A DNA stretch of 64,000 nt from NCBI GenBank assembly GCA_001817915.1, contig MHJJ01000014.1:3695-67694 (forward strand). Direction: 5' to 3'. Shown here piece by piece: positions 4,122 to 47,468 of this stretch. This DNA comes from Candidatus Harrisonbacteria bacterium RIFCSPLOWO2_01_FULL_44_18. GTDB lineage: Bacteria; Patescibacteriota; Minisyncoccia; UBA6257; WO2-44-18. Made by a program: the position numbers and the translations under genes. The notes under the pieces were generated by a model. The model saw nothing but the letters and a program-made list of their open reading frames with translations, searched no databases and was not told the DNA's origin. Within the stretch, counting starts at the first letter, position 1. The number at the start of each line of letters is the position of its first letter.

Positions 4122-5840
4122 ATGCTAACGAAACTTTATTGGATTTTAGCAATTGTTTTAATTTTGCTTATCGGTTTAGCCGGATTTTTTTGGTTTCAAT
4201 CCCGTTCAAATCAAGGCTTGGATTTGCAAATTAACGCTCCCGACGAAGTTTTAATTGGAGTGCCTTTTGATTTGGAAATCAACGTAACCAACGATTCCGG
4301 CGGCATTTTAAAAGACAGCAAACTTTCATTGGCCATTCCCGAAGATGTCGTGTTTGTGGGAAGCGCCGTCGGTAAAACCGTGGAATATAAAACATTGGGC
4401 AATTTGGGCGTCGGCAATTTGACCAAAGAAAGTTTTAAACTGATGGCGTTGGGCGAGGAGAATAGCTTGAGGCAAATCGAAGCCACCCTTAGTTATTTGC
4501 CGACTTCTTTGGGATCGCGATTTGAAATCGTAAAAAAAATTGATTTGGAAGCGGGCCAATTCGGCTTAGTTGTTGATTTAACGGCGCCGGAAAAAGTTTT
4601 CAGCGGCGAAGATTTTGAGATCGCCGCTTCTTATAAAAATGTTTCCGGCATTGATCTTTCGGGCCTTATCCTTAAAATGGAATATCCGCCGACGTTTAAT
4701 TTTATAGAATCTTCCTTGGAGCCGGACGCCGGGAACAATGTTTGGAATTTGGGAGATTTGCGGCGAGGTTCGGAAATGGAATTTAAAATAAAAGGAAACC
4801 TTATCGGCCCGGACGATTCATTTTTTGATTTAAGAGCCAGCCTAGAGGCCAATTTTTTGGGTAAAACCTATGTCATCAGCGGTAAATCGGCCAACGTCTC
4901 TATTTCGCCGTCGCCGCTCTCTTTGCGAATTTTCCTAAACGAGGATCCTGATTATGTTGCCGGGCCGGGCGATGTTTTAAATTATTCTCTGGCCTACGCC
5001 AACAACACCGACGTCGCGCTGCGGGACGTTGTTATTGAAGCGAAATTAATCGGTGAAATGTTTGACCTAAAAACTTTAAATACTAACGGAATTACCCGTT
5101 CCGGTGAAAACGCGCTGGTTTGGAACGCGTCAAATTTGCCCGAGCTGGCAGTTTTACCGGTCGGCGCTTCCGGGACAGTGAATTTTCAGACAAAAGTCGC
5201 GAACAGCTACCCCATAAAAAGATTGAGCGATAAAAATTTTGTTCTAAAAGCGGAAGCTCAAATTGAGTCGCCGACTGTGCCGTATTTTGTGGGAGCGCGG
5301 AAAACAGTCGGTCTGGCAAAGCTGGAAACTAAAGTTGCCGGGCAAATAAAAGTTGATACCAAAGTGTATTTTCGAGACGCGGCTTCAGGAATTTTGAATA
5401 AAGGGCCGATGCCTCTTAAAGCGGGGCAACCGACTCAATTTACCGCGCATTGGTTTATTACTAATTTTGGAACAGACGTCAGCGGCGTGGAAGTCAGAGC
5501 ATTTTTGGAAGGAAATGTTAGAATGATAGCAGATAAAACAAAGAGCAATAGCGGCGCTCTTCCGGTTTATAACGAAAGAACGCAGGAAGTGGTTTGGCTG
5601 ATAGATCGGATTCCGGCTACTAAAGGAGTAATCGGCGACCCCCTTGAGGCGATTTTTCAAATTGAGGCAATGCCTTCCGCTAATTTGGCCGGGACTTATA
5701 TGCCGCTTATAAAAAATAGCTCAATAACCGCCACGGACGATTTTACCGGATTAAAATTAAGCGGTTCGGATTTAGCCGCGACCACCGCGCTGCCGGACGA
5801 TCCGACAGTCGGTCCGCAAGGCGGCATCGTTAAGAATTAG
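4122..5840 (+). CDS. hypothetical membrane-anchored surface protein with repeated beta-rich segments
   Basis: 572 aa with an N-terminal TM segment (LYWILAIVLILLIGLAGFFWF). Long ORF, no domain I can name confidently. Confidence 0.6.
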   Translation: MLTKLYWILAIVLILLIGLAGFFWFQSRSNQGLDLQINAPDEVLIGVPFDLEINVTNDSGGILKDSKLSLAIPEDVVFVGSAVGKTVEYKTLGNLGVGNLTKESFKLMALGEENSLRQIEATLSYLPTSLGSRFEIVKKIDLEAGQFGLVVDLTAPEKVFSGEDFEIAASYKNVSGIDLSGLILKMEYPPTFNFIESSLEPDAGNNVWNLGDLRRGSEMEFKIKGNLIGPDDSFFDLRASLEANFLGKTYVISGKSANVSISPSPLSLRIFLNEDPDYVAGPGDVLNYSLAYANNTDVALRDVVIEAKLIGEMFDLKTLNTNGITRSGENALVWNASNLPELAVLPVGASGTVNFQTKVANSYPIKRLSDKNFVLKAEAQIESPTVPYFVGARKTVGLAKLETKVAGQIKVDTKVYFRDAASGILNKGPMPLKAGQPTQFTAHWFITNFGTDVSGVEVRAFLEGNVRMIADKTKSNSGALPVYNERTQEVVWLIDRIPATKGVIGDPLEAIFQIEAMPSANLAGTYMPLIKNSSITATDDFTGLKLSGSDLAATTALPDDPTVGPQGGIVKN

Positions 5841-5971
5841 GATTTTCCGTCAGAGGCGGATTCGCCTTCGGCGGAGGAATACAGAATTTAGGATTTAGGT
5901 ATAGGATTGGATAAATTCTACTTCCCTAAATTCTAAATTCTATATCCTATATTCTATTTTCAAAATCAACT

Positions 5972-7420
5972 ATGGATTTAATGGAAAAAATAGTTAATTT
6001 GTGCAAGCGTCGGGGTTTTATTTTTCCCGGCTCGGAAATTTACGGCGGTCTTGCCAACTCTTGGGATTACGGCCCACTTGGAGTTGAATTAAAAAATAAT
6101 ATCAAAAATGAATGGTGGAAAAGATTTGTGCGTCAGCGGACCGATATTGTCGGCATTGACGCCGCTTTAATGATGAATCCGAAAGTATGGGAAGCAAGCG
6201 GCCATCTCAAAGAATTTTCTGATCCGTTGGTGGAGTGCAAGAGTTGCCATAAGAGATTTAGGGTTGATGAATATGGAGACGAAGGAATGAAGGCGAAAAA
6301 AGAAAACCTTCCTGGTTTTTCTAACAAATCTCACCTTCTTAGTGTTAGAAGCAAAAATGATATTGCTTGTAAAAATTGTGGTTTAAAAGGAACACTTACT
6401 GATTTTCGTATGTTTAATTTAATGTTTAAAACTTTCCTCGGTCCTTCGGAAGACAGCGCCAGCGTCGTATATCTGCGTCCGGAAACGGCGCAGGCGATGT
6501 TTGTGGATTTTAAGCAGGTTTTGGAAACTGTCCGCAAGCGCGTGCCTTTCGGCATAGCTCAAGTCGGCAAAGCGTTTCGCAATGAGATAACGCCCGGCAA
6601 TTTTATTTTCCGTACGCGGGAATTTGAGCAAATGGAAATAGAATATTTTATCCGTCCGCCAGCCGGCGAAGAGTGGAAAAAGTATTTTGATATGTGGCTG
6701 GAAGAGATGAAAAATTGGTTAGTAAATTTAGGTGTTGATTTGAAGAAAATCCATTTTCGGGAAATCCCCGAGGAAGAACGAGCCCATTATTCAAAGCGCA
6801 CCGTGGACATTGACTATGAATTTCCGTTTGGCCAAAGCGAACTTTATGGTTTGGCGTATCGCGGCGATTTTGATTTGAAGAATCATATGGAAAAAAGCGG
6901 TCAGGATTTGCGATATACCGACCCGGATACCGGCGAAAAATTTGTGCCGCATGTTATTGAGCCGACTTGGGGAGTAGATAGATCAGTTTTAGTCGCGATG
7001 CTTGAGGCGTATCGCGAAGAGATAGTCGCGGACTCACGCGGACTGGACGCAGACTCGCGCGGAAAGAGAAGTAATGAGGAAGAAACGCGGGTAGTTATGA
7101 AGTTTCCGAAATGGCTCGCGCCGATAAAAGTCGCGATACTTCCGTTGTCCAAAAAGGAAGAGTTAATAAAAATCGCCAAGCCGCTATACGAACAGTTGGC
7201 TAAAAAATTCGTTTGCGAATATGACGAAACGCAGAGTATCGGCAGACGTTATCGCCGCCAAGACGAAATCGGCACGCCCTATTGCGTTACCGTTGATTTT
7301 GAAACAATAAATGATAAAGCGGTAACTATTCGCGATCGCGATACCATGAAACAGGAAAGAGTCGAGATTTCCGCTCTATCTAAAGTCTTAGAACAATCTA
7401 TTGGTTTCGGGAATCAATAG
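5972..7420 (+). CDS. glyQS: glycine--tRNA ligase (dimeric class II type)
   Basis: 482 aa. KRRGFIFPGSEIYGG..WDYGPLG and FRNEITPGNFIFRTREFEQMEIEYF are GlyRS signatures. Contains the insert ADSRGLDADSRGK. Confidence 0.92.
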   Translation: MDLMEKIVNLCKRRGFIFPGSEIYGGLANSWDYGPLGVELKNNIKNEWWKRFVRQRTDIVGIDAALMMNPKVWEASGHLKEFSDPLVECKSCHKRFRVDEYGDEGMKAKKENLPGFSNKSHLLSVRSKNDIACKNCGLKGTLTDFRMFNLMFKTFLGPSEDSASVVYLRPETAQAMFVDFKQVLETVRKRVPFGIAQVGKAFRNEITPGNFIFRTREFEQMEIEYFIRPPAGEEWKKYFDMWLEEMKNWLVNLGVDLKKIHFREIPEEERAHYSKRTVDIDYEFPFGQSELYGLAYRGDFDLKNHMEKSGQDLRYTDPDTGEKFVPHVIEPTWGVDRSVLVAMLEAYREEIVADSRGLDADSRGKRSNEEETRVVMKFPKWLAPIKVAILPLSKKEELIKIAKPLYEQLAKKFVCEYDETQSIGRRYRRQDEIGTPYCVTVDFETINDKAVTIRDRDTMKQERVEISALSKVLEQSIGFGNQ

Positions 7421-7433
7421 ATTAGAATCCAAA

Positions 7434-8822: not shown

Positions 8823-9848
8823 ATGGATTTTAAAAATTTCGACATTACTTGGGGAGGCCTTTGGCGGGTCTTTTTTATGGTTCTTTTGGTTTGGGCTTTG
8901 TTTATGGCTCGCGACGTTGTCATAGTTTTATTGCTGGCCATAGTTATTTCTTCCGCCCTTGATCCAATCGTGACATTTTTGCAAAAAAAGAAGATCCCGA
9001 GAATTTTGGGAGCGCTGGCGATTTTTATTTTAGTAATTTTCATTCTGGCGTTAATTTTCTACACCATCATTCCAATCGCCCTTTTTGAATTCAATAATTT
9101 ATTGGGCAGTCTTAGCCAAAGAACGGATTCGGTTTTTGAATTCGTTAAAGCCCCCGAGATTTTAGCTACTATCAATACCAGCCTGGAGAGATTGACCGAT
9201 ATCTTGCTAAGCGGCAGCGCTTCCGTCGTTGATATCGCCAGTAAATTTTTGGGAGGATTGGTTTTGCTGATTTCTGTTTTTGTTCTTTCTTTTTATCTTA
9301 CGGTTGACAAAGACGGCGTAGAAAGATTTCTCATCGCGGTTTTGCCAACGGCCTCCGAGTCCAAATTTTTGGATATTTACGCGCAAACTAAAAAGAAAAT
9401 CGGCGATTGGCTGAAGGGGCAAATATTTTTGAGTCTAACTATGGGCGTCGTGGTATTCGCGGGCTTGAAATTGCTGGGCGTAAAGTACAGTTTAGTTTTG
9501 GCTATCTTGGCCGGCGTTTTAGAACTTATTCCGTACGTCGGCCCTATTTTTAGCGGCACGGTCGCGGTTTTGATCGGTTTGACCGATTCATTTGCTTTAG
9601 GTCTTTATGTTCTTTTATTATTCATTGTTATTCAGCAACTTGAAGGCCATGTTTTAGTGCCGGCGGTTACCCGTTTCACCACCAACCTTAATCCCGTCGT
9701 GGTGTTGGTTAGTTTGATGATCGGCGCGAAAATTTTCGGTTTTGTCGGAGTTATTTTAGCCGTGCCATTGGCAGTAATGGCGCAGGAATTTATTGAGGAG
9801 TTGTCTCAGTCAAAGCAGCGCCGCCGAGACTCAAAACTCATTAGATGA
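8823..9848 (+). CDS. AI-2E family transporter (PerM/UPF0118-like permease)
   Basis: 341 aa polytopic membrane protein. ELIPYVGPI and QQLEGHVLVP are motifs typical of the family. Confidence 0.75.
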   Translation: MDFKNFDITWGGLWRVFFMVLLVWALFMARDVVIVLLLAIVISSALDPIVTFLQKKKIPRILGALAIFILVIFILALIFYTIIPIALFEFNNLLGSLSQRTDSVFEFVKAPEILATINTSLERLTDILLSGSASVVDIASKFLGGLVLLISVFVLSFYLTVDKDGVERFLIAVLPTASESKFLDIYAQTKKKIGDWLKGQIFLSLTMGVVVFAGLKLLGVKYSLVLAILAGVLELIPYVGPIFSGTVAVLIGLTDSFALGLYVLLLFIVIQQLEGHVLVPAVTRFTTNLNPVVVLVSLMIGAKIFGFVGVILAVPLAVMAQEFIEELSQSKQRRRDSKLIR

Positions 9849-11344
9849 AAAAGTTTTATATTACCACTTCCATTGTTTATGTAAACGCGCCTCCGCATGT
9901 CGGTTTCGCGTTAGAATCCATTCAGGCGGATGTGTTAGCTCGGTATCATCGCCAAAAAGGCGATGAGGTTTTTTTTCTGACCGGCGCGGACGAGCATGGC
10001 GCTAAAATTGCGAGAGCCGCCGAGGCAGTCGGTAAAGATTTTCAGTTATTTGTTGACGAAATTGCCGCGAAAGTTAAAAAACTTAAAGACGTCCTGAATT
10101 TATCCTGGGACGATTTTATAAGGACCACTGATAAAAAACGCCATTGGCCCGGCGCTCAAAAATTATGGCGCGACATGGCCGCGGCCGGAGATCTTTATCG
10201 TAGAAAATATCGCGGCCTATATTGCGTTGGACACGAGGCGTTTGTTACCGAAAAAGATTTAATTGACGGCAAATGCCGAGATCATCAGAAGGAGCCGGAA
10301 GTTATTGAAGAGGAAAACTGGTTTTTTCGGTTATCAAAATATCAAAAGAAAATAGAATCAAGCATCAAGAAAAATAAATTAAGAATAATTCCGGAAGGGC
10401 GAAGAACGGAGGTTTTGTCTTTCATTAAAGAAGGCTTGGAGGATGTCAGCTTTTCTCGGCCGCGAAAAGATTTGTCTTGGGGTATCTCCGTGCCGGATGA
10501 CGAAACTAGCACGATGTATGTTTGGTGCGACGCTTTGGCGAATTATATTTCCGCCATCGGCTATGGCCAACAAAAAAGTTCTCCGCCGAAGGCGGATCCG
10601 CCTCAGGCGGAAAAGTTCACGAAATGGTGGCCTGCCGACATTCATTTAATTGGAAAAGATATTTTAAGATTTCACGCTTTGCTTTGGCCGGCGATGCTTC
10701 TTTCGGCAAAATTGCCGCTTCCTAAAAATATCTTTGTTCATGGGCATTTAACCGTTGATGGGCAAAAAATGTCCAAGAGCGTCGGCAATGTAGTAGATCC
10801 ATTTGAATTAGTCGCGAAGTATGGCATTGATCCGGCGCGCTATTATCTTTTGCGTGAGATTCCCAGCGGAGAAGACGGCGATTTTAGCTATAAAAAGCTT
10901 AAAGAAAGATACAACGGCGATTTAGCTAATGGCCTTGGGAATTTTGCCGCGCGCGTTTTAACTTTGGCGGAGAAATTGGGGGAGATAAAAGTTGATTTAA
11001 AAAGCGATGTTGATAAAGCAGTGGCTAAAAAAATCAAGGCGGTTCAAAAGAAAGTTGATGAAAAAATCACCGAATTCAAACTGCACGAGGCTTTAGCGGA
11101 AATTTGGGATTTGATCGCTTTTGGGGATAAATATGTTAATGAGAAAAAACCGTGGAACGCGTCGCTTAGCGTGAATGAAAAAGCGCGAACCATTTTTAAT
11201 TTAATCGCGATCTTGGATAATGTGGCGGCAATGCTATCGCCGTTTTTGCCGGAAACTTCTAAAAAAATTACCGAGAGCATTCATTGGTTATCAAAAAATA
11301 CTTTGAAAATTAAAAAATCCGCGATGCTTTTTCCGCGGATTTAA
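9845..11344 (+). CDS. metG: methionine--tRNA ligase
   Basis: 499 aa. The YVNAPPHVGFA (HIGH-like) and KMSKSVGN motifs are present. ATGA overlap with the upstream gene. Contains the palindrome-encoded insert SPPKADPPQAEK. Confidence 0.92.
   Translation: MKKFYITTSIVYVNAPPHVGFALESIQADVLARYHRQKGDEVFFLTGADEHGAKIARAAEAVGKDFQLFVDEIAAKVKKLKDVLNLSWDDFIRTTDKKRHWPGAQKLWRDMAAAGDLYRRKYRGLYCVGHEAFVTEKDLIDGKCRDHQKEPEVIEEENWFFRLSKYQKKIESSIKKNKLRIIPEGRRTEVLSFIKEGLEDVSFSRPRKDLSWGISVPDDETSTMYVWCDALANYISAIGYGQQKSSPPKADPPQAEKFTKWWPADIHLIGKDILRFHALLWPAMLLSAKLPLPKNIFVHGHLTVDGQKMSKSVGNVVDPFELVAKYGIDPARYYLLREIPSGEDGDFSYKKLKERYNGDLANGLGNFAARVLTLAEKLGEIKVDLKSDVDKAVAKKIKAVQKKVDEKITEFKLHEALAEIWDLIAFGDKYVNEKKPWNASLSVNEKARTIFNLIAILDNVAAMLSPFLPETSKKITESIHWLSKNTLKIKKSAMLFPRI
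10581..10614. repeat. small GC-rich palindromic element (ccgccgaaggcggatccgcctcaggcgg) in frame in metG
   Basis: Related copies occur at 5851-5877 (intergenic) and 25713-25744 (downstream of tRNA-Ser). Confidence 0.75.
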
Positions 11345-11374
11345 TCTATTGCTTCCGGGAAGCAATAGATGGAA

Positions 11375-12129: not shown

Positions 12130-13155
12130 ATGATACTTATTGATTCTCATACCCATATCCAATTTCCGGTTTATGATAATGATCGGGAGGCGGTTATTGA
12201 ACGCGCGAGAAACGCGGGGGTTTACCCCCACACCAAACGAGCATTGGCGTTAGAAGAAAATGATGCTCGTTATGGTGTGGGGGTAAAAATGATTTGCGTC
12301 GGCACTCAAGCATCAACTTCTGAATCGGCAATTAAGCTCGCGGAAAAATATCCAGAGGATGTTTGGGCGACAATCGGCTACCATCCCAATCATGTTGTGC
12401 CAGCGCAACATGCGCAGACTTTGCGGACTGGACGCAGACTTGCGCAGACAAATTGGTATCATGATCAGAAGGAGCAGAAATCGGCAAATCCGCCGCGATT
12501 TAATATTGAAGAACTGCGCAGGCTTGCTCAGCATCCGAAAGTCGTGGCGATCGGGGAGTGCGGTTTGGATTACTACCGACTAGCCGCTAGCGATTTGCCA
12601 CTAGCCACTAGGGTTAAAGAAAAACAGAAAGAAATTTTTTTGCAGCAAGTCGAACTTGCGCAGGAATTAAATAAAGCATTGATGATCCATTGCCGGCCAT
12701 CCAAAGGCACCAACGACGCCTACGAAGATTTGCTGAAGATTTTACAGGAGATTAAATTTTCTCAGAATGTAATTATTCATTTTTATGTTGGTTCTGTTGA
12801 AATGGCACGAAAATTTTTAGATGCCGGATTTTACCCCCACACCAAACGAGCATTATCGGGGGGCGTCAATGGCGCGAATGCTCGTTATGGTGCGGGGGTT
12901 TATTTTACCTTCGGTGGCGTGATTACATTTTCACGCGACTATGACGAAATTATAAAATACATTCCTCTGGATCGAATTCTTCTGGAAACCGACGCGCCCT
13001 ATGTCGCGCCGGAACCGTATCGCGGCCGCCGCAACGAACCGGCATACATCGTGGAAACCGCTAAAAAACTAGCGGAAGTTAAAAATGTAAGCTTTGAAAA
13101 AGTGGCTGAAATAACTACCAAAACTGCTGGACAGATTTTTAAGTTGCCATTATAA
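12130..13155 (+). CDS. tatD: TatD family metal-dependent hydrolase/DNase with three repeat-derived inserts
   Basis: Begins LIDSHTHIQF and contains GECGLDY, ALMIHCR and ETDAPY motifs. At 341 aa it is larger than a typical TatD, owing to inserts at 12221-12287, 12411-12449 and 12830-12902. Confidence 0.88.
   Translation: MILIDSHTHIQFPVYDNDREAVIERARNAGVYPHTKRALALEENDARYGVGVKMICVGTQASTSESAIKLAEKYPEDVWATIGYHPNHVVPAQHAQTLRTGRRLAQTNWYHDQKEQKSANPPRFNIEELRRLAQHPKVVAIGECGLDYYRLAASDLPLATRVKEKQKEIFLQQVELAQELNKALMIHCRPSKGTNDAYEDLLKILQEIKFSQNVIIHFYVGSVEMARKFLDAGFYPHTKRALSGGVNGANARYGAGVYFTFGGVITFSRDYDEIIKYIPLDRILLETDAPYVAPEPYRGRRNEPAYIVETAKKLAEVKNVSFEKVAEITTKTAGQIFKLPL
12221..12287. repeat. palindromic element family A, copy 1 (in frame in tatD)
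   Basis: Arms tttacccccacaccaaacgagcat / atgctcgttatggtgtgggggtaaa. Encodes YPHTKRALALEENDARYGVGV. Confidence 0.9.
12830..12902. repeat. palindromic element family A, copy 2 (in frame in tatD)
   Basis: Arms tttacccccacaccaaacgagcat / atgctcgttatggtgcgggggttta. Encodes YPHTKRALSGGVNGANARYGAGV. Confidence 0.9.
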
Positions 13156-13954: not shown

Positions 13955-13982
13955 GGTAAGCGTGTTGTGCCAAAAAATTTGC

Positions 13983-14010
13983 TTGACAAATTTTATAGGT
14001 TTGCTATTAT
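13983..14010 (+). promoter_or_regulatory. sigma70-like promoter TTGACA-16-TATTAT
   Basis: cTTGACAaattttataggtttgcTATTAT shares the cTTGACAAATT...TGCTAT pattern with 2960 and 22190. Confidence 0.55.
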
Positions 14011-14061
14011 ATGGGAAGTTCGTTGATTGCTTTTCGAGGGCCATTTTCAGAAGGAGGAGCG

Positions 14062-14695: not shown

Positions 14696-14703
14696 GATTT
14701 CTT

Positions 14704-14745
14704 GATTTCGGGAATCGATAGATACTTCTATCGATTCCCGAAATC
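14704..14745. repeat. palindrome of the gatttcgggaatc family
   Basis: Sequence gatttcgggaatcgatagatacttctatcgattcccgaaatc. More arms lie at 14773-14811 and 37541-37598. Confidence 0.85.
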
Positions 14746-14832
14746 GCCAAGTTAATTCAAATCCAAAAAGCCGATTCCCGAAATCACGCCGAACTATTGA
14801 TTTCGGGAATCATAAAAGCCTATAATTTCTAT

Positions 14833-17385
14833 ATGCTGAAGTATAATTTTCGTAAAATAGAAAAAAAGTGGCAAGCCGTCTGGAAGCGCAATAAGTATAA
14901 GGTCTGGCGCGCCGCGGATTTTTCTAAAAATCAAAACCCAAAAGCTAAAAGCTATGTATTGGATATGTTTCCCTATCCCTCCGGCGAAGGACTGCATGTC
15001 GGCCATGTTGAGGGTTATACCGCTTCGGATATCTACGCGCGTTTTTTAAGAATGAACGGCCGTAATGTTTTGCATCCGATGGGATGGGACGCCTTTGGTT
15101 TACCTGCGGAAAATTACGCGATTAAGACAAAAACTCATCCCAGCTTGGTGGTAAAAAAGAATGTAAGGCGATTTAAAGCCCAATTAGACAGCTTGGGATT
15201 CAGCTACGATTGGCAAAGAGAAATTAATACCACCGACCCCGGATATTATAAATGGACGCAGTGGATTTTTCTGCAGATGTTCAAAAACGGCCTTGCTTAT
15301 GAAGCAGAGATGCCGGTTAATTGGTGTCCCTCTTGTAAAACCGTATTAGCCAATGAAGAGGTGATTGACGGCCATTGCGAACGTTGTGACAGCCTCGCAG
15401 AAAGAAAAAGTTTGAAACAATGGATTTTAAAAATTACCGATTACGCCGAGCGTCTGCTGAAGGATCTAGACGGGTTGGATTGGCCGGAGCGAGTAAAAGA
15501 AATGCAAAGAAATTGGATTGGCCGGTCAGAGGGGGTGATCATTAAGTTTCAAGTTTCAAGTTTAAAGTTTCCAATCGAAGTTTTTACGACTCGGCCGGAT
15601 ACTTTGGCCGGCGCCACTTATCTGGTTTTAGCGCCGGAACATCCGCTTATCAAAGACTTACAGCGCAAAATTAGGAATCCTAACGAGGTGACGCGTTATG
15701 TTGAGCAGGCGAGCCATAAATCAGAGCGCGAGCGACTGGCGGAAGTAAAAGAGAAAACCGGAGTCGAGCTTAAGGGCATTAAAGCCGTTAATCCTTTGAC
15801 CAACGAACAAATTCCGATTTGGGTCGCTGATTATGTTTTGGTCCATTATGGCACGGGCGCGATTATGGCAGTGCCGGCCCATGATCAAAGAGACTTTGAA
15901 TTTGCTCAGAAATTTGAGTTGCCGATAAAGATTGTTATTTGCCCGAATTATCCGGAACCCGTTTGCCCGATTTTAGAAAAAGCTTATGAAGGCGATGGAT
16001 ATTTGGTTGGTTCGGGCGAATTTGACGGCCTGCCTAATAACGAAGCTAAAAAAACGATTCTTGAATCGTTGATAAAAAAAGACTTGGCGAAAAAGACTGT
16101 TAATTACAAATTGCGGGATTGGGTTTTTTCCCGTCAGCGTTATTGGGGCGAGCCGATACCTTTGGTTTTTTGTAAAAATTGTAAAAAACAAGTGGAGAAT
16201 TTTAAATCTCAAAACCAAAATTATTCTTTTGATAAATTTAGTTTGGGAGAATTGTTAAATCCCGGTTGGACGGTCATTCCTGATTCAGAATTACCGGTCA
16301 AGTTGCCCAATGTTAAAAATTATCAGCCAACCGGCAAGGCCGAGTCGCCTTTGGCTGGCATTGAAAAATGGACCAAGACGAGTTGTCCCAGATGCGGCGG
16401 GTTAGCTACGCGAGAAACTAATACTATGCCGCAATGGGCGGGGTCTAATTGGTATTATTTGCGATATTTAGATCCCAAGAATAAAGAAGAATTAGTTGAT
16501 CACGACAAAGAAAAATACTGGATGGGAGTGGACTTATACATCGGTGGCGTAGAGCACGCGGTGTTGCATTTGTTGTACGCCCGCTTTTGGCATAAGTTTT
16601 TGTATGATATCGGCATAGTTTCCACCAAAGAACCTTTTGGCAAATTAATTAATCAAGGTTTAATTTTGGGGCCGGATGGCCAGAAAATGTCAAAATCGCG
16701 CGGCAATGTGGCAAATCCCGACGAAATAGTTTCTAAATTTGGCGCGGATTCTTTGCGGCTTTATGAAATGTTTATGGGGCCGTTGGAGGAGGCAAAACCG
16801 TGGGATTCCCGCGGGATCGTGGGAATGCACCGTTTTTTACAAAGAACGTGGAAGTTATTCACGAAACCGGGAATTGAAAAAAATCCGCGTAAATCTGCTT
16901 CTACCGACGCAGAATCCGCGTCAATCCGCGTAGCGAAGCTGTTACACAAAACTATCAAGAAAGTTACCGAAGATGTCAAAAATTTCCGGTTTAATACCGC
17001 TATCAGCGCGCTGATGATTTTAGTTAACGAAATGGAAAAGAATCCTCAATTACTAATTACTAATTACCAATTACTAATAAAATTGTTGTTTCCTTTCGCG
17101 CCGCATTTAGCTCAAGAACTTTGGCAAAAACTAGGAAATAAGAGTTTATTGGATTACGAGCCTTGGCCGGTCTGGGATGAAAAATTAATCCAAGAAGAAG
17201 AGTTTGAGTTAATTATTCAAATCAACGGCAAAATGCGGGGTAAAATTATGACTCAAAAGGGAATTGTCGAAGAAGACGCGAAAAAACTTGCATTCAGCCA
17301 AAATGTTATTAAGAAATGGATCGGCGGCAAAAAAATCAAAAAAACTATTTTCGTGAAAGATAGGTTGATAAATTTTATTGTTTGA
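14833..17385 (+). CDS. leuS: leucine--tRNA ligase
   Basis: FPYPSGEGLHVGH and KMSKSRGN motifs plus a CP1 editing region. Start moved to MLKYNFRKIEKKW. Inserts at 16884-16933 and 17049-17076. Confidence 0.93.
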   Translation: MLKYNFRKIEKKWQAVWKRNKYKVWRAADFSKNQNPKAKSYVLDMFPYPSGEGLHVGHVEGYTASDIYARFLRMNGRNVLHPMGWDAFGLPAENYAIKTKTHPSLVVKKNVRRFKAQLDSLGFSYDWQREINTTDPGYYKWTQWIFLQMFKNGLAYEAEMPVNWCPSCKTVLANEEVIDGHCERCDSLAERKSLKQWILKITDYAERLLKDLDGLDWPERVKEMQRNWIGRSEGVIIKFQVSSLKFPIEVFTTRPDTLAGATYLVLAPEHPLIKDLQRKIRNPNEVTRYVEQASHKSERERLAEVKEKTGVELKGIKAVNPLTNEQIPIWVADYVLVHYGTGAIMAVPAHDQRDFEFAQKFELPIKIVICPNYPEPVCPILEKAYEGDGYLVGSGEFDGLPNNEAKKTILESLIKKDLAKKTVNYKLRDWVFSRQRYWGEPIPLVFCKNCKKQVENFKSQNQNYSFDKFSLGELLNPGWTVIPDSELPVKLPNVKNYQPTGKAESPLAGIEKWTKTSCPRCGGLATRETNTMPQWAGSNWYYLRYLDPKNKEELVDHDKEKYWMGVDLYIGGVEHAVLHLLYARFWHKFLYDIGIVSTKEPFGKLINQGLILGPDGQKMSKSRGNVANPDEIVSKFGADSLRLYEMFMGPLEEAKPWDSRGIVGMHRFLQRTWKLFTKPGIEKNPRKSASTDAESASIRVAKLLHKTIKKVTEDVKNFRFNTAISALMILVNEMEKNPQLLITNYQLLIKLLFPFAPHLAQELWQKLGNKSLLDYEPWPVWDEKLIQEEEFELIIQINGKMRGKIMTQKGIVEEDAKKLAFSQNVIKKWIGGKKIKKTIFVKDRLINFIV
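17049..17076. repeat. heptanucleotide tandem repeat AATTACY x4 inside leuS
   Basis: aattactaattactaattaccaattact encodes LLITNYQLLI. Confidence 0.85.
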
Positions 17386-22167: not shown

Positions 22168-22196
22168 ATTATATTCGATCTTCGGCAACTTGACAA
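22168..22196 (-). promoter_or_regulatory. sigma70-like promoter TTGTCA-17-TATAAT driving the minus-strand tRNA cluster
   Basis: Minus strand reads TTGTCAagttgccgaagatcgaaTATAAT and ends 8 nt before the first tRNA nucleotide (22159). Its -35 overlaps the plus-strand -35. Confidence 0.6.
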
Positions 22197-22217
22197 ATTA
22201 TGTAGACCTGCTATAAT
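22190..22217 (+). promoter_or_regulatory. sigma70-like promoter TTGACA-16-TATAAT for the 3D-domain gene
   Basis: cTTGACAaattatgtagacctgcTATAAT. Confidence 0.65.
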
Positions 22218-22258
22218 TTGGTTAAAGTGCGATAGTTCCCCGAAGGGGGATTTTTTTT

Positions 22259-23981: not shown

Positions 23982-24464
23982 ATGATCAAAGTCGCGCTTT
24001 TTAATGAAATTTCCCATGAATTAGGCAATACTCTTCTTGTGGATGTCACAAGCAGGATCGTTGAAAGGATTAATAATCTTTTGAGGCAGTTGTCAGTCAA
24101 CGCTCCATATTGGACTATCGGATGTTTCGCGGAGTTTTTGCGGCAGTCCAATAATCATTTAGTTGTTGCTATTGATGGCAAAATTATTGCTGGTATGGGA
24201 ACGGTTATTTTGAGCTATTCTTTAATGGGCCGTCACGCGAGGATCGAGGATGTGATTGTAGATAAACCATATCTCGGTAAGGGTTTGGGTCGAAAAATTG
24301 TCGAGGAATTAATCAGAATCGCCAACAAGGAAGGAGCAAGATGGATTGATTTAACCAGCAATTCTTCGCGAGTCGGGGCACTGAAGCTTTATAGAAGCTT
24401 GGGATTTAAGGATGTGGCGACAAATTGTTTGCGGCTGGCTTTGGGAGAGCAGGATTCGAGCTAG
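23982..24464 (+). CDS. GNAT family N-acetyltransferase
   Basis: The segment IEDVIVDKPYLGKGLGRKIVEELI is the acetyl-CoA binding motif (Q/RxxGxG/A). Start chosen at MIKVALF. The last codons lie in an arm of N4. Confidence 0.8.
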   Translation: MIKVALFNEISHELGNTLLVDVTSRIVERINNLLRQLSVNAPYWTIGCFAEFLRQSNNHLVVAIDGKIIAGMGTVILSYSLMGRHARIEDVIVDKPYLGKGLGRKIVEELIRIANKEGARWIDLTSNSSRVGALKLYRSLGFKDVATNCLRLALGEQDSS

Positions 24465-24713
24465 CATCAATTTAGTGAGCCAATTCCCGCCCATCTTCTT
24501 TGTTACTCGTCGCTTATGTGCCTATTGGCACACTACGCTCCTCGCGCCTTGAATCTGGACAGGAATTGGCTCACCCGAAGGGAAGAGAGAATTTGAGCCA
24601 AGTTCGAGGAACGACGAGGAGGTTGTGCTGGTAAGCACATCGACGAGGAGTGACAAAGAAATTGGCTCAAATTCTCTCTTCTAAATTTGACGCCAGTTCG
24701 AATCCTGCTCTCC
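24444..24713. repeat. compound nested palindrome N4
   Basis: Outer arms ggagagcaggattcgagctagcatcaatttag / ctaaatttgacgccagttcgaatcctgctctcc. Inner arms tgagccaattcc/ggaattggctca and aagagagaatttgagccaa/ttggctcaaattctctctt. Shares about 60 nt with 48682-48751. Confidence 0.9.
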
Positions 24714-24737
24714 TAGAGAAATAACCGCGGTTTCAAA

Positions 24738-25694: not shown

Positions 25695-25765
25695 CTTTGA
25701 ATAGAAACTTGTCCTCCGAAGGAGGATCCGCCTCCGGTGGAAAATGCGGTATCGCAACCAAAAAG

Positions 25766-26754: not shown

Positions 26755-29373
26755 ATGATTACCAAAGAAACTTTGCGAAAATCTTTTTGGGCTTTGCCGG
26801 TTCACGAGGCGCTTGACGCGCTTGAAACTACTGCCAGCGGGTTGATGCGGGATGAAGCAGAAGAGCGTCTTAGGGTTTTCGGGAAAAACGTTTTAGCCAA
26901 AAGGATAAGAATAACTAAATTAAAAATTCTTGTCAGGCAGTTCGGAAGCCCGCTGATTTTTCTTTTGTTAATTGCCGGCGGCGTTACTTTGTTTTTGAAG
27001 GATTTTAAGGATGCCGGATTTATTCTTGCCGCCGCTTTAATAAACGCGATTTTGGGATTTTATCAAGAAAGCAAAGCCGAGACGGCGTTGGCGCATTTAA
27101 GAACTTACATCAGAGAACGCAATCGCGTATTTAGAGATAATCACGAGATAGAAGTTGATTCCAGCGAATTAGCGCCGGGAGACGTCATCCATTTATCTCA
27201 AGGGGATCGGATACCCGCGGACTGCCGATTAATTTATGTCAACGATTTTGCCGTTGATCAAGCGATTTTAACCGGCGAATCCCTGCCGGTTTCTAAAGAT
27301 ATCAAGCCCGCCAGTTTTCAGGCAGTCCTCGCGGATCAGAATTCAATGGTCTTTAGCGGCACGGTGGCGGTACAGGGGTTTGCCAATGCCGTTGTTTCCG
27401 CTACCGGCAAATACACCGAATTGGGGAAAATCGCCGCTCTAGTCGCGAGGCCGGAAAAGGAACGCACTCCTCTTCGCGAGGCAATAAATAAATTCAGTAT
27501 TAAGGCCAGCATTATTTTGATCGGATTAACGGCCCTGATTTTTTCGCTCGGCGTTTTGACGGGAAGTTCATTGCTGGATATGTTTTTGATTTCGGTGGCG
27601 ATCGTAGTTTCGGCGATACCGGAAGGATTGCCAATCGCGATGACCGTCATTTTGGCGGTAGGCGTGCAAAGATTGGCGTGGAAAAAAGGAATTGTCCGCA
27701 AATTGCTCGCGGCGGAAACAATGGGCAGCACCTCGGTAATTTTGACTGATAAGACCGGCACCTTGACTGAAGCCAAGATGGAACTTTCGGAAATAAAAGT
27801 TTATAAGGAGGACCGCGCGGAAGAGCGGAAAGAAACGATATTAAAACTCGCCATCCTTAATAGCGACGTGGTGATAGAAAATCCCGGCGATTCGCCTTTT
27901 GACTGGGAAATTATTGGCCGGCCGCTGGAGGTGGCGATTGTCAGATCGGCGGCCAAATTTGATATTTTGGCGCCGGATGTTCGTAAGAAAATGAAAGCCG
28001 TCGATTATCTTCCATTTAGTTCCGTAAATAAATTTTCGGCAAACGTTATTCAGCAAGGTTCGAAATATTTACTTAGCGTGTTCGGCGCGCCGGAAATTTT
28101 ATTAAAATTTTCTAATTTGCCCGATAATTCGCGCCGCCAAATTCATAGAGATGTCGACAAGGTCGCCTATGGCGGCGCGAGAGTTTTAGCAGTCGCGACA
28201 AAAGAATTATCGGGCATTGAAGGAGTTTCGCTTCGCCAGAAAGAAATTTTTAAAGATTTGGATTTTTTGGGAACAATGTCTTTTAGGGACCCGATTCGCA
28301 AAGAAGTCAGAGACGCGGTTAATCGGGTCGCTCAAGCCGGTGTCCGCACTTTAATTGTCACGGGAGATCATCGCGGCACCGCGGAGTTTGTAGCTAAAGA
28401 AGTCGGCATTTCTATTGATGGCGATAGTGTCATTGACGGCGCTGAACTTGACGCGCTGAACGATGAAGATCTTAAAAATAGACTTCCGAATTTAAGGATT
28501 GTTTCGCGGGTAAGTCCGGAAGGAAAATTGAGGATAGTTAAAGCGCTTCAGGGGATAGGGGAGATTGTGGCAATGACCGGCGACGGCGTGAATGACGCCC
28601 CAAGTTTAAAGGAAGCTGATATCGGCGTTAGCATGGGTTCGGGCACCGATGTTGCTAAAGATGTATCGGATTTAGTTTTGCTTGACGATAATTTTGAAAC
28701 CATCGTGGAAGCCGTGGCTGAGGGCCGAAGGATTATACAAAATATCAGAAAAGTAATCGTTTATCTGCTTTCAAATGCTTTGGACGGATTGATTTTAATT
28801 GGCGGGTCCTTGCTTATCGGCTTGAGCTTGCCGTTGAACGCGCTGCAGATTCTTTGGGTTAATTTTTTTACCGATAGTTTTCCGGCAATCGCCTTGGCTT
28901 TTGAAAAAAAGATTGACCATTGGGTTGATCGTCCCGCGCCAATCCATAAAGGATTGCTTGACTCGGAAATGAGATTTTTGATTCAAGTGATCGGAGCGCT
29001 CACGAGTGTTTTGCTTTTGGTTTTATACGTTGGCTTGCTTTATTTGGGTATTGAAGAAAAATTGGTTCACACTTTTATCTTTGCCGCCTTTGGGACATAC
29101 AGTTTGTTTTTGGTTTTCGCGGTTCGAAGTTTGAGACGGAGTATTTTCACTTATAATCCTTTTTCAAACCCCGCGCTTTTGGGAAGCGTGATTTTAGGAT
29201 TGGGATTAATGGCGATCGCGATTTACGTTCCTTTTCTCCAAAAATTATTCGGCACCATGCCCTTGCCGTTAAACTGGCTCTGGGGCATCGTGGGTTTGGG
29301 AATTTTGAATGTCTTCGCGATTGAGTTTGGAAAGTGGGTTTTTAGAAAAAAACAACTAACAACTAACAACTAA
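26755..29373 (+). CDS. cation-transporting P-type ATPase (type II, Ca2+/Mg2+-like)
   Basis: 872 aa. The DKTGTLT phosphorylation site, TGES, TGDGVNDAPSLK and about 10 TM segments are present. Confidence 0.9.
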   Translation: MITKETLRKSFWALPVHEALDALETTASGLMRDEAEERLRVFGKNVLAKRIRITKLKILVRQFGSPLIFLLLIAGGVTLFLKDFKDAGFILAAALINAILGFYQESKAETALAHLRTYIRERNRVFRDNHEIEVDSSELAPGDVIHLSQGDRIPADCRLIYVNDFAVDQAILTGESLPVSKDIKPASFQAVLADQNSMVFSGTVAVQGFANAVVSATGKYTELGKIAALVARPEKERTPLREAINKFSIKASIILIGLTALIFSLGVLTGSSLLDMFLISVAIVVSAIPEGLPIAMTVILAVGVQRLAWKKGIVRKLLAAETMGSTSVILTDKTGTLTEAKMELSEIKVYKEDRAEERKETILKLAILNSDVVIENPGDSPFDWEIIGRPLEVAIVRSAAKFDILAPDVRKKMKAVDYLPFSSVNKFSANVIQQGSKYLLSVFGAPEILLKFSNLPDNSRRQIHRDVDKVAYGGARVLAVATKELSGIEGVSLRQKEIFKDLDFLGTMSFRDPIRKEVRDAVNRVAQAGVRTLIVTGDHRGTAEFVAKEVGISIDGDSVIDGAELDALNDEDLKNRLPNLRIVSRVSPEGKLRIVKALQGIGEIVAMTGDGVNDAPSLKEADIGVSMGSGTDVAKDVSDLVLLDDNFETIVEAVAEGRRIIQNIRKVIVYLLSNALDGLILIGGSLLIGLSLPLNALQILWVNFFTDSFPAIALAFEKKIDHWVDRPAPIHKGLLDSEMRFLIQVIGALTSVLLLVLYVGLLYLGIEEKLVHTFIFAAFGTYSLFLVFAVRSLRRSIFTYNPFSNPALLGSVILGLGLMAIAIYVPFLQKLFGTMPLPLNWLWGIVGLGILNVFAIEFGKWVFRKKQLTTNN

Positions 29374-29457
29374 CAACTAACAACTAACAACTAACAACTA
29401 ACAACTAACAACTAACAACTAACAACTAACAACTAACAACTAACAACTAACAACTAA
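29353..29457. repeat. heptanucleotide tandem repeat (CAACTAA)x15
   Basis: 105 bp of perfect repeat. It overlaps the last 21 nt of the ATPase CDS and abuts the stop codon of comF. Confidence 0.95.
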
Positions 29458-30167
29458 ACCTTGGCTATTACCAGTCCGATGACTCTTGCCGCGCCGGCTT
29501 TTCGTAAAATTTTTACTGCTTCGTTCATAGTACTGCCGGAAGTAAATACGTCATCGATCGGGATTATCTTTTTGCCCTTAATCAACTCCGGATTTTTTAC
29601 CGCGAAGCATCCGGCAATGTTCTCTTGCCTTTTTTCTAATCCTTTTATTTCCGGCTGGGGCTTAGTATTTTTTATTCTGATTAAATTGCCGGTCATCAAT
29701 TTCACGCCAAGGGTTTTGCTGATTTCTTCGGCAATGGCTTCAGATTGATTAAACCCGCGCCCCCTTTCTCGAGAAGGATGAAGCGGGATCGGGATAATCA
29801 AACTTGCGGGACTTATTGGCCTTATAGGCCCTATGTAGGCCAGCAGGATTTTCGCCAGCGGTTTGGCGGCGCATTTTTGTTTTTTGTACTTGAGCCGCCA
29901 AATCAGTTTTTTTACTTTTTCATCGTCATAGGACGTTGCCGCGCCCAATAAGTAGGAGTCTTTTTTGTGGCAGACTTTTTTATTGTCGGCTAATCTTGCC
30001 CGACAGATCGAGCAATACAACGCGGTATTTATAGGAATAGAATTAAAACAAGAAGCGCAGATATATTCTTCCTTTTCGGTTTTTTGAAGAGCTTTTTCGC
30101 AAATCAAACAAATCGGCGGGGAGAGAATATCCAAAACAGCGCCTTTTAATCTTATTAAGTAATTCAT
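29454..30167 (-). CDS. comF: ComF family protein (phosphoribosyltransferase domain, ComFC-like)
   Basis: 237 aa. N-terminal Cys pairs (CLIC..CASC, CSIC) and the PRTase motif IIPIDDVFTSGSTMNEA. Confidence 0.8.
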   Translation of the reverse strand: MNYLIRLKGAVLDILSPPICLICEKALQKTEKEEYICASCFNSIPINTALYCSICRARLADNKKVCHKKDSYLLGAATSYDDEKVKKLIWRLKYKKQKCAAKPLAKILLAYIGPIRPISPASLIIPIPLHPSRERGRGFNQSEAIAEEISKTLGVKLMTGNLIRIKNTKPQPEIKGLEKRQENIAGCFAVKNPELIKGKKIIPIDDVFTSGSTMNEAVKILRKAGAARVIGLVIAKV

Positions 30168-30390: not shown

Positions 30391-31470
30391 ATGGCTTTCG
30401 ATTTTTTTAAATCTTTACTCGGCGCCCAAAATTATTTGGCGGTTGATATCGGCACTACTTCGATAAAGGTTTTAGAATTTTCAAAAAAATCCAACGGCCG
30501 GCCGGCTCTTCGCAATTACGGATTTTTGGAAACCTACGGCTATCTGGAAAGATTTAATGAAGCCCTTCAAACCAGTAGTTTGAAAATGCTTGATGTGGAG
30601 GCGGCGAAGTATTTAAAAATAGTTTTGGATCGCGCCGGAATCAAGTCGCGGTCGGCGGTCGCGTCCATACCCGCCTTTATGGCCTTTACCACTTTAATCG
30701 AACTGCCAATGATGAGCGAAGCTGAAACTTCGCAGACAATGGATTTTCAGGCAAAACAGTATATTCCCATCCCGGTAAAAGCGGCCGCGATTGATTGGAT
30801 AAAGATAGGCGAACGCGAGGACGAAGAGGGGCGAAAGAGACAGCAAGTTTTTTTGATTTCCGTTCCAAAGGAACAAATTGAAAAATATCAAAAGATTTTC
30901 CGGCTAGCCGGTTTGAAATTAGCCGCTTTGGAAATCGAGGGTTTGAGTCTTGCTCGAGCGCTTAGCCGAGGCATTAAAGAGCCGGTTTTGATTGTTGATA
31001 TCGGCGCTCGTTCAACCAGCCTGACCGTCGGAGTAGACGGGCTTTTGAGATTCGCCGGTCAAACCGATTTTGCCGGCGGCTCCTTGACTCAAGCAGTGGC
31101 TTCGGGTTTGGGCATCGCCGCCCGACGAGCTGAAGAATTGAAGTGGCGGAAGGGCTTAATCGCCACCGGCGGCGAGCAAGAGTTATCCACACTGATGCTA
31201 CCGTTTTTAGATGTTATAATTAATGAGGCGAAAAGAGTCAAGCAGAATTACGAAACCAGTTATCAGAATAAGATAGCCGCGGTTATTTTGGCGGGAGGCG
31301 GGGCAAATTTGTTGGGTATAGAGAAATATTTTGGTCAACAGATAGAACTGCCGGCATCTTTAGCCGCTCCCTTCAAAGAGATTGACTATCCGCCGGAGAT
31401 TGCCTCGTTAATCAAAGATTTGGGACCGGCATTTTCAGCCGCGATAGGACTAGGGATGAAAGGGCTATAA
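30391..31470 (+). CDS. pilM: type IV pilus assembly protein PilM (actin-like ATPase fold)
   Basis: 359 aa. Has the YLAVDIGTTSIKVLEF start, and sits first in a pilMNO-pilB-pilT-pilC context. Confidence 0.85.
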   Translation: MAFDFFKSLLGAQNYLAVDIGTTSIKVLEFSKKSNGRPALRNYGFLETYGYLERFNEALQTSSLKMLDVEAAKYLKIVLDRAGIKSRSAVASIPAFMAFTTLIELPMMSEAETSQTMDFQAKQYIPIPVKAAAIDWIKIGEREDEEGRKRQQVFLISVPKEQIEKYQKIFRLAGLKLAALEIEGLSLARALSRGIKEPVLIVDIGARSTSLTVGVDGLLRFAGQTDFAGGSLTQAVASGLGIAARRAEELKWRKGLIATGGEQELSTLMLPFLDVIINEAKRVKQNYETSYQNKIAAVILAGGGANLLGIEKYFGQQIELPASLAAPFKEIDYPPEIASLIKDLGPAFSAAIGLGMKGL

Positions 31471-31612
31471 CGAAGTAATCGCGAACAACGCGAATCTATG
31501 CAAAATAATGCTAATAATTTATTCGCGTTATTTCGAATCAGATTAGCATTATTCGCGATTACTCCGATTCGTGTTATTTTGAAACAAATTAGCATTATTC
31601 GCGATTACTCCG
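31471..31612. repeat. pilus-operon junction repeat, copy 1 (stop of pilM to start of pilN)
   Basis: Starts cgaagtaatcgcgaacaacgcgaa immediately after the TAA and ends attagcattattcgcgattactccg immediately before the ATG. Confidence 0.9.
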
Positions 31613-32146
31613 ATGAATCAAAATCTTGTTGATAAATTTGAAACGGAAAGATTGCCGACCGGGTGGCCATGGCGGTTATTTTTGTTCAGTTTTTTGCTTT
31701 TCGCGGCGACGGTCGTCAGTTATTTTGGTTTGTCATTGGGCTATAAGCCGTTTTTAAACAGGCAAATTGCCGGAAAGGAAGCGGAAGTTAATCAATTGGC
31801 GGCGGCCGTTCCCGAAGCCGAGCAGGAAAATTTTATTAGATTTTATTCTCAATTGGCGAATTTGGAGAAAGTCTTAAACAACCATGTTGTTTCTTCCGCC
31901 CTCTTTCCATTTTTAGAAAGAAATACCAACGTCCAGATATATTACAATATCTTGGATTTCAGCGCTTCGGAGAAGAGATTGACTTTGGATGGCGTTGCTC
32001 AAAACTACGATATTTTAGCGCAGCAGCTCGAGGCTTTCACTCAAGCTAAAGAGGTTGAGCGGTTTTTAATCAATGAATCGCAATTAAGCGAAGGAAAAAT
32101 AAGATTTCGGGTATCGCTATTTTTAGCGCCGCAAGTATTGAGATAA
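31613..32146 (+). CDS. pilN: PilN-like type IV pilus assembly protein
   Basis: 177 aa with a single N-terminal TM segment, located after pilM. Confidence 0.6.
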   Translation: MNQNLVDKFETERLPTGWPWRLFLFSFLLFAATVVSYFGLSLGYKPFLNRQIAGKEAEVNQLAAAVPEAEQENFIRFYSQLANLEKVLNNHVVSSALFPFLERNTNVQIYYNILDFSASEKRLTLDGVAQNYDILAQQLEAFTQAKEVERFLINESQLSEGKIRFRVSLFLAPQVLR

Positions 32147-34957: not shown

Positions 34958-34966
34958 TATAATTAA

Positions 34967-35108
34967 CGAAGTAATCGCGAACAACGCGAACCTATGCAAA
35001 ATAATGCTAATAATTTATTCGCGTTATTTCGAATCAAATTAGCATTATTCACGATTACTCCGATTCGTGTTATTTTGAAACAAATTAGCATTATTCGCGA
35101 TTACTCCG
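34967..35108. repeat. pilus-operon junction repeat, copy 2 (pilB to pilT)
   Basis: More than 90% identical to copy 1 by eye and ends directly at the pilT ATG. Confidence 0.9.
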
Positions 35109-36182: not shown

Positions 36183-36331
36183 CGAAGTAATCGCGAACAA
36201 CGCGAACCTATGCAAAATAATGCGAATACTGTTAACGGAGCAATCGCTAATAATGCGAATTTTGGCAAAATAATGCTAATAATTTATTCGCGTTATTTTG
36301 AATCAGATTAGCATTATTAGCGATTACTTCG
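36183..36331. repeat. pilus-operon junction repeat, copy 3 (pilT to pilC)
   Basis: Has the same termini as copies 1 and 2, with a different internal segment. Confidence 0.9.
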
Positions 36332-37540: not shown

Positions 37541-37640
37541 GATTTCGATTCCCGAAACCGATAGTGGATTTCGGGAATCCAGCGGATTCCCGAAATCCCA
37601 AATTTAGGACTTATTATTGAAATATGCTATACTTAAATAT

Positions 37641-46932: not shown

Positions 46933-46934
46933 CT

Positions 46935-47385: not shown

Positions 47386-47447
47386 TAAACCCCCACACCA
47401 AATGAGTTTCAAGATTCTATAAAAACTCGTTATGGTGTGGGGGTAAA
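47386..47447. repeat. palindromic element family A, copy 3 (intergenic)
   Basis: taaacccccacaccaaatgagttt...aaactcgttatggtgtgggggtaaa has the same arms as the two tatD inserts. Confidence 0.9.
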
Positions 47448-47468
47448 CCCGCCTTCGAGCGGGTTTTA
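47446..47468 (+). terminator. intrinsic terminator
   Basis: Stem aacccgc / gcgggtt followed by tttt. Confidence 0.65.

Follow-up and report, generated by a model that had tools for sequence, protein, structure and literature searches.

What is the palindromic element that interrupts the gene of a TatD-family hydrolase twice without breaking its reading frame, and what brought it there? The question arises from a DNA stretch of 64,000 nucleotides (here called the window) of Candidatus Harrisonbacteria bacterium RIFCSPLOWO2_01_FULL_44_18, an ultra-small inhabitant of groundwater (contig MHJJ01000014.1, positions 3,695–67,694), in which the same element is also found a third time, outside genes. 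A preliminary description of this DNA had likened the insertions to Rickettsia palindromic elements (RPEs) and proposed a mobile element family that is tolerated in surface loops. The analysis presented here bears out both proposals and leads us to conclude that the three copies are probably non-coding members of a mobile hairpin family of Patescibacteria (the CPR, or candidate phyla radiation), which is paired with a longer element encoding a GIY-YIG nuclease.

Three copies of one hairpin element

All three copies lie on the + strand, at the places where they had been reported, and share one plan, a core of 54–65 nt that opens with the left arm CCCCCACACCAAAYGAG and closes with the right arm CTCGTTATGGTGYGGGGG. 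A single unpaired extra base is present in the right arm of every copy (CGTT-A-TGG). Copy 1 (12221–12287) has a core of 59 nt (12225–12283) between TTTA (12221–12224) and TAAA (12284–12287), the paired arms at 12221–12244 and 12263–12287 enclosing a loop at 12245–12262. In copy 2 (12830–12902; arms 12830–12853 and 12878–12902) a core of 65 nt (12834–12898), with one T>C change in the right arm, stands between two direct copies of TTTA (12830–12833 and 12899–12902), and in copy 3 (47386–47447) a core of 54 nt (47390–47443) stands between two direct copies of TAAA (47386–47389 and 47444–47447). The arms had first been given as about 24 nt long; inverted arms are present, but their outermost 4 nt are the flanking 4-mers, outside the conserved element sequence, and the portion conserved throughout the family amounts to 17–18 nt per arm. 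The 17-mer CCCCCACACCAAAYGAG occurs 3 times in the window vs. 0.10 expected, a count that 0/100 shuffles reached, and a search tolerating 2 mismatches found no further paired copies there. Each copy folds into a single long hairpin, with energies of −42.1, −38.4, and −32.6 kcal/mol for copies 1, 2, and 3, respectively (z-scores vs. shuffles of −9.4, −5.3, and −8.1). Scanning the whole window against Rfam at gathering thresholds returned tRNAs only, and no family at the hairpin copies.

Copy 3 is intergenic, as had been noted. It is located in a 3' untranslated position between the stop codon at 47378 of the ORF 46881–47378 and a terminator-like hairpin with a T-run (47445–47466, + strand), which follows it directly and belongs to the context rather than to the element; the next ORF starts at 47510 and is, judging from its N-terminal sequence, a putative metK. 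This copy lengthens the sequence by 58 nt, a number not divisible by 3, and the length of an insert is irrelevant between a stop codon and a terminator.

Two in-frame insertions in tatD

The host gene of copies 1 and 2 is the ORF 12130–13155 (+ strand), whose product of 341 residues belongs to PF01026 and is 100% identical to a protein (P0001, also carrying PF01026) known as OGY63078.1 and OGY65155.1 from two Candidatus Harrisonbacteria metagenome-assembled genomes (MAGs) of the Rifle aquifer; its nearest relatives comprise 274–300 residues. Since the two copies start 609 nt apart they are read in the same frame. Copy 1 adds 63 nt, encoding YPHTKRALALEENDARYGVGV (21 aa, residues 32–52), and copy 2 adds 69 nt, encoding YPHTKRALSGGVNGANARYGAGV (23 aa, residues 235–257); both peptides start with YPHTKRA and end with RYG(V/A)GV, so that the frame and the lengths first described hold. 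The two inserts are absent from all orthologues in alignments of 33 and 50 sequences. The 50 orthologues (56–69% identity over aligned columns, 48–58% by BLASTP) align across both sites without a gap, as ..RA.(A/N)GV|KMI(A/C)VG.. at site 1 and ..(A/T)GF|YFTFGG.. at site 2. Once the core and a single TTTA are taken out, site 2 reads GGA TTT TAT TTT ACC, i.e. G F Y F T, exactly as in the orthologues. The comparison shows the two segments to be lineage-specific insertions rather than ancestral loops. No empty-site version of the window TatD is found in its own 90% cluster, which holds the 341-residue form and a fragment only.

Had the peptides been ancestral, they should recur in other TatD proteins; a similar peptide, HPHTTTQGGENSSDPAFGVGV, was encountered in a single orthologue (P0057, 50% identity in the search output), exactly at site 1. 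The corresponding DNA (locus L121, 3097–3159) contains a member of the same element family, likewise adding 63 nt, in the opposite orientation, with the extra base in the left arm. Neither its loop nor its inner stem is related to that of copy 1, both sets of arms are nearly perfect, and orthologues closer than P0057 have no insert at all. For these reasons two independent insertions at site 1 appear far more likely than shared ancestry. The native sequence of this site, GGnGTAAAA, resembles the right end of the element itself, GGGGGTAAA, which indicates an insertion hot spot rather than common descent.

The AlphaFold (AF2) model of the protein (mean pLDDT 86.9, pTM 0.87) is a TIM barrel whose top PDB matches are TatD/YcfH structures of 253–265 residues (TM 0.82–0.88). 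Low-confidence regions are confined to residues 32–44 and 235–252, corresponding to the two inserts, and to residues 91–110. Insert 1 (pLDDT <50 at residues 32–39 and 41–44) is placed between the helix 19–27 and the strand 52–57, insert 2 (pLDDT <50 at residues 235–252) between the helix 223–232 and the strand 257–261, in agreement with the proposed tolerance of the inserts in loops. In TIM barrels the helix-to-strand loops are on the face opposite to the catalytic site. The PF01026 domain is complemented by the conserved metal-binding residues H7, H9, E143, H187, H217, and D288, all of them intact. With these residues in place, tatD looks functional and its enzyme has presumably retained activity; the inserts most likely reach the protein as disordered loops, 21 and 23 residues long.

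Further repeats are found in this and other TatD proteins. A third repeat family, GCGGACTGGACGCAGACTYGCGCRGA, lies within long ORFs at all five of its positions in the window (7027–7064, 12410–12450, 52796–52824, 55394–55431, and 55745–55770); the copy in tatD encodes AQTLRTGRRLAQT, a stretch that is variable among orthologues and has a pLDDT of 51–59. Together with the two hairpin inserts, the gene thus carries three repeat-derived segments. A second palindromic repeat, CCGCCGAAGGCGGATCCGCCTCAGGCGGA, is present at 5839–5878, 10575–10614, and 25705–25744. Its copy at 10575–10614 stands in frame inside a 499-residue ORF (9845–11344), which we take to encode a methionyl-tRNA synthetase, and is translated there as SSPPKADPPQAEKF; a near-identical peptide, SPPKADSPLAEKF, interrupts the TatD of another organism (P0069), and this repeat looks like another in-frame-inserting family. 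In a TatD orthologue of yet another organism (P0112), different peptides, SYAKATEGEPAFAQATAGKQIS and PARIAEQKRGGADRG, are inserted into additional loops. It appears that insertions have colonised TatD repeatedly in these lineages.

A mobile family widespread in Patescibacteria

We scanned one genome per species (596 Gb) using the 17-mer as an exact seed, which yielded at least 120 stretches, the number of chance matches being estimated at about 140. Among the matches listed, those with both arms and a named taxon always come from Patescibacteria (Saccharibacteria, Nealson-, Lipton-, Harrison-, Doudna-, Wildermuth-, and Staskawiczbacteria, and Parcubacteria), and those in named taxa outside the CPR always miss the second arm, as expected of chance matches. 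Several MAGs have copies on at least four contigs. The hairpin family is widespread in the Patescibacteria and not private to this genome. Carriage by phages was considered and rejected: the 7 matches to the 17-mer in IMG/VR all lack the second arm and occur in unrelated sequence. No published description was found in the full-text literature, the coverage of which is incomplete, so that an earlier description is possible; the papers that come nearest are PMC11893778 and PMC10969869, and the family is apparently undescribed so far.

Evidence for mobility comes from the flanks. Identical 4-mers border 43/94 copies vs. 9.4 expected from re-paired flanks (at most 17 in 1000 shuffles), and the identity stops before the fifth base. 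Some of the metagenomic loci recur in more than one sample; after removal of such duplicates by their flanks, 78 of 182 unique copies have identical 4-mers, with the consensus T-N-N-A. This pattern matches the expectation for a 4-bp target-site duplication and supports the mobility of the family that had been suspected from the window. A further empty site is provided by a gene at locus L034, which carries a copy that its collinear orthologue at L077 does not; it is the sole real case, since the other apparent empty sites among the fetched loci proved to be self or tandem artefacts. A second-order duplication outside TTYA..TRAA flanks was also considered and dropped, its pattern being inconsistent by eye. 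G-runs are enriched just upstream of the insertions, and 9+9 copies are arranged head to tail with one shared 4-mer, both of which suggest that targets resemble the element's own end.

Core lengths range from 54 to 77 nt and cluster at 59, 62, 65, 68, 71, and 74 nt. Of 74 distinct copies, 55 show full complementarity in the 3 nt immediately inside the conserved arms (7.0 expected, maximum 16), and at least 12 different triplets occupy these positions (GAC, CAC, GAT, CAT, and AAT among them). Variable yet complementary, they imply that the pairing itself is maintained, beyond the sequence of the ends.

The RPE-like behaviour first noticed in tatD is a property of the family. Among the fetched loci, 24/111 copies lie in a reading frame free of stops for at least 50 codons to either side; 23 of these 24 have a core that, with 4 nt added, is a multiple of 3 in length, and the other copies are split 37:19:15. 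Sixteen of the genic copies, each in a different host gene, are read as xPHTKR...GVG(V/A).

Coding relatives encode a GIY-YIG nuclease

At ten genome loci the same arms are found 299–307 nt apart around one small ORF, which is intact (85 residues) in seven. At an additional locus (L092) arms 297 nt apart enclose no such ORF; the ORF is truncated or lost in L022, L035, and L092. The 85-residue product matches PF01541, the GIY-YIG catalytic domain (E 4.5e-15, residues 1–71), and nothing else; NCBIfam has no specific family for it, and the nearest solved structures are those of the UPF0213 proteins 1ZG2 and 1YWL. Residues Y5, Y16, R26, H30, E62, and N64, which we assign as the putative GIY-YIG catalytic positions, are invariant in the seven copies. 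The protein family comprises more than 7000 clusters; nearly all among the best 120 have a length of 85 residues, and the organism names given among these 120 are Patescibacteria or simply 'bacterium'.

The association of arms and gene holds for metagenome homologues of the protein (n = 80, 57–83% identity) that were picked solely for the similarity of the protein: both arms are present within 70–80 nt in 71, one arm in eight, and recognisably variant arms in one. The modal length of the nuclease element is 303 nt. Identical 4-nt flanks of many different sequences border 32 of the 71 full-length copies, and the inner parts of their arms co-vary (ATAACGAG/CTCGTTT, TAATCAG/CTGATTA, AATTGAG/CTCAATT). 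In 1.25 Mb of sequence, 141 adjacent arm pairs are mostly of two sizes: 78 pairs measure up to 140 nt and 54 measure 271–335 nt. The only ORF found between arms is that of the GIY-YIG protein. A larger insertion sequence (IS) with the same arms was looked for among these pairs; none exceeds 335 nt, save one pair 1219 nt apart. The arm with the extra base is always 5' of the nuclease gene, an asymmetry common to the short and the long forms. With the extra base in their right arm, the window copies are antisense to the direction of the nuclease gene, and so are, by our classification, 19 of the 23 classifiable genic copies.

One full-length element (L008, 3374–3684) is inserted between rplN and rplX, both confirmed by Pfam, with TGAA on both sides. 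The rplN stop codon lies inside the left TGAA, and the new start codon of L24 is a GTG composed of the last G of the element and the right TGAA; the flanks would fit an ancestral ATGA overlap of stop and start. At L175 (2440–2910; same locus in L176, L179, and L184) the 4-mers flanking a GIY-YIG element are both CACA, and the element adjoins a tRNA-like 5' fragment, GGGCACATAGCTCAATGGTAGAGC. That this insertion regenerated the 5' end of a tRNA was rejected, the fragment being only tRNA-like and the tRNA-Ile being placed 50 nt further by ARAGORN.

The short copies were also considered as internal-deletion derivatives of the long form; this origin found no support in global alignments controlled with shuffled loops, in blastn-short, or in tests of end-anchored identity. 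The gene may instead have been captured between arms that existed before it.

Relation to known systems

[quoted passage not shown] Anatomically, the CPR hairpin element is MITE-like: it is short and non-coding, has conserved terminal inverted ends of 17–18 nt, and shows a target-site duplication in copies 2 and 3, if not in copy 1 and about half of the family. Whereas classical MITEs share their ends with an IS encoding a recognised transposase, the only coding relative here is a nuclease-encoding element of 0.3 kb; moreover, the stem continues about 3 nt past the conserved arms with compensatory changes.

RPEs are palindromic repeats often found in frame in unrelated housekeeping genes, to which they add a family-specific peptide at fold-compatible positions (PMC10969869). 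The CPR family has in common with them the in-frame insertion of a palindrome at fold-compatible sites, and we claim similar behaviour, not membership. RPEs reside in Rickettsia and measure about 100–150 bp, whereas the present cores of 54–77 nt reside in Patescibacteria and are distinguished by a clear 4-nt flank duplication and by a coding partner with the same ends. To our knowledge, no such partner has been established for RPEs.

The closest relative in terms of the enzyme is Ssn, a single-domain GIY-YIG nuclease that binds a hairpin repeat in single-stranded DNA (ssDNA) and cuts beside it (Chenal et al. 2025, PMC11893778). Its authors note the IS-like architecture NTS-ssnA-NTS, and report that 2% of the NTS copies are genic; CPR hosts go unmentioned in the main text (PMC11893778). 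GIY-YIG genes in Patescibacteria receive no more than a passing mention in PMC12455944. In both systems a single-domain GIY-YIG protein of less than 100 residues is associated with hairpin-forming repeats, which occur around its gene and at other places in the genome. On the other hand, the CPR gene lies inside one inverted repeat, with one arm on each side, whereas the ssn gene lies between two separate hairpins, and the CPR copies, in contrast to NTS, have 4-nt direct flanks and are frequent inside genes. The published SRM motif (HGTCWY..RNCYNB) has no match in the window and five in 1.18 Mb of loci, none of them within 60 nt of an arm, the NTS consensus being matched as the positive control; by this motif the CPR hairpins are ruled out as SRM.

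REP/RAYT systems and IS200/IS605 elements likewise form imperfect hairpins in which one base is extrahelical; a conserved tetranucleotide flanks them, and the enzyme gene is bracketed by its own repeats. Identity with them was rejected, as their enzyme is a Y1 HUH transposase and the present one a GIY-YIG nuclease; nor do we know of any target duplication made by either group. Homing endonucleases of the I-TevI type, too, are products of a selfish element and possess a GIY-YIG catalytic domain. They are, however, multi-domain enzymes of about 250 residues with one cognate site, which sets them apart from a single-domain protein of 85 residues associated with many unrelated sites. The element is best described as a MITE-like hairpin with RPE-like behaviour, paired with an Ssn-like GIY-YIG nuclease.

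Proposed mechanism and alternative explanations

We propose the following course of events. The element consists of its 17–18-nt terminal inverted repeats, a short variable complementary stem, a loop left free, and a single base that stays unpaired in one of the arms, and it usually stands between two copies of a 4-nt T-N-N-A target. The nuclease would recognise the hairpin or cruciform formed by the arms and cut at its foot beside the 4-mers, a geometry modelled on the Ssn nucleases, which cut ssDNA beside a hairpin. In this way it may move the gene that encodes it and also act in trans on the short copies, with host enzymes completing the joining and the gap filling. Two such short copies entered tatD at helix-to-strand loops where, the core and one 4-mer amounting to 63 and 69 nt, the frame continues and the enzyme would be left working. 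That the 85-residue protein itself is the mobilising enzyme, acting on hairpin or cruciform DNA, and that the elements thereby constitute a new class of transposon, is a tentative proposal to which we give somewhat less than even weight; the pairing of the two forms in one mobile family is, as said at the outset, considerably better supported.

Several observations weigh against this account. More than half of the copies are without identical flanks, typically with TTYA on the left and TRAA on the right. For three of these the empty site is known, and there the right 4-mer belongs to the native sequence while the left one is new. The left 4-mer is then not a copy of the target, and a simple staggered-cut model is incomplete. 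The interiors of the short copies have no significant similarity to that of the GIY-YIG element, with the exception of the 18 nt inside the left arm of copy 3, which match the 3' end region of one such element at 14 positions. The window is devoid of a GIY-YIG gene of this clade. Furthermore, GIY-YIG enzymes are hydrolytic and none is known to us to perform strand transfer, and terminal inverted repeats combined with a target duplication are the classical mark of a DDE transposase.

The last two points, together with interiors so dissimilar that the gene might have been captured between pre-existing arms, would suit another explanation, namely that a conventional (e.g. DDE) transposase encoded elsewhere moves the hairpins and that the GIY-YIG gene is a passenger, or a homing-type parasite of the hairpin loop. 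We regard this as unlikely. Apart from the one pair 1219 nt apart, none of the 141 arm pairs is large enough to exceed 335 nt; 79 of the 80 genes of the nuclease clade have at least one arm, at many loci and with 4-nt direct flanks of their own; and homing alone would create no flank duplications at new loci.

A pair of repeat and nuclease domesticated in the manner of Neisseria Ssn/NTS is less probable still. The hairpins would then be immobile recognition sites maintained by the host, for instance for the control of incoming or single-stranded DNA, and the tatD copies old relics. The closest characterised system does work in this manner (PMC11893778), and the extreme conservation of the arms across very distant CPR lineages could reflect a function. 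However, the tatD inserts are specific to this lineage and the same site was hit independently in another genome; copies with flank duplications stand at unrelated loci and inside many different genes; and the three loci with a truncated or lost nuclease ORF recall decaying selfish elements. Finally, the very stable RNA hairpins and the very low model confidence of the inserted segments might suggest inserts that are removed before or after translation, as introns or inteins are, or regulatory RNA structures instead of peptide loops, but this is highly improbable given that 23/24 genic copies are stop-free and in multiples of 3 although length would be irrelevant if they were excised (which argues for translation), that none matches Rfam, that 21–23 residues are far too short for an intein, and that the peptide frame PHTKR..GVGV recurs in 16 different host genes.

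Other repeats in the window

A small hairpin of the form ATCTATTG(G/C)TTYCGGGAAKCAATAGAT is found at 7396–7424, 11342–11370, 14697–14723, 14792–14818, and 37534–37564; one copy directly follows the stop codon of the ORF 9845–11344, and the hairpin may be a shared terminator-like element. A conserved repeat resembling a promoter, ACTTGACAAATT..N..GCTATAA, with the spacing of TTGACA- and TATAAT-like motifs, is present at 2958–2994, 13981–14017, and 22188–22224. Tandem arrays of 7-nt units (AACAACT, AAAATCC, and ATTGGTA plus its complement) occupy 1148–1187, 17047–17080, 29337–29471, 50177–50221, and 56545–56589. Inverted pairs resembling the 3' halves of tRNAs (GGAGAGCAGGATTCGAAC...) occur at 24439–24718 and 48679–48753; complementarity between the two sites reaches 97%, and ARAGORN calls no tRNA there. 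A direct repeat of 148 nt is found three times (31468–31615, 34964–35111, and 36233–36380, the latter two with 98% and 72% identity to the first, respectively), and a 50-nt sub-repeat of it occurs a fourth time at 36179.

Biological implications

The hairpin family bears on the long-open question of how short RPE-like palindromes come to lie in frame within genes and by what means they move. Three features of the family make this question tractable, namely the clear signature in its flanks, its very large number of natural examples (more than 7000 nuclease clusters and copies across the CPR), and a single tiny candidate enzyme. If the nuclease does mobilise the hairpins, its chemistry of transposition would be new, and the arm-gene-arm unit of about 303 bp would be, as far as we know, both the smallest autonomous transposable element and the first with a GIY-YIG nuclease as its only protein. 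The Ssn nucleases would thereby be extended from a host function to a selfish one, and the same logic might account for the spread of RPEs. The non-coding derivatives would then be a general source of lineage-specific peptide insertions in the proteins of Patescibacteria. Whatever the mechanism, such frame-preserving insertions affect gene calling, protein alignments, and structure prediction across the CPR.

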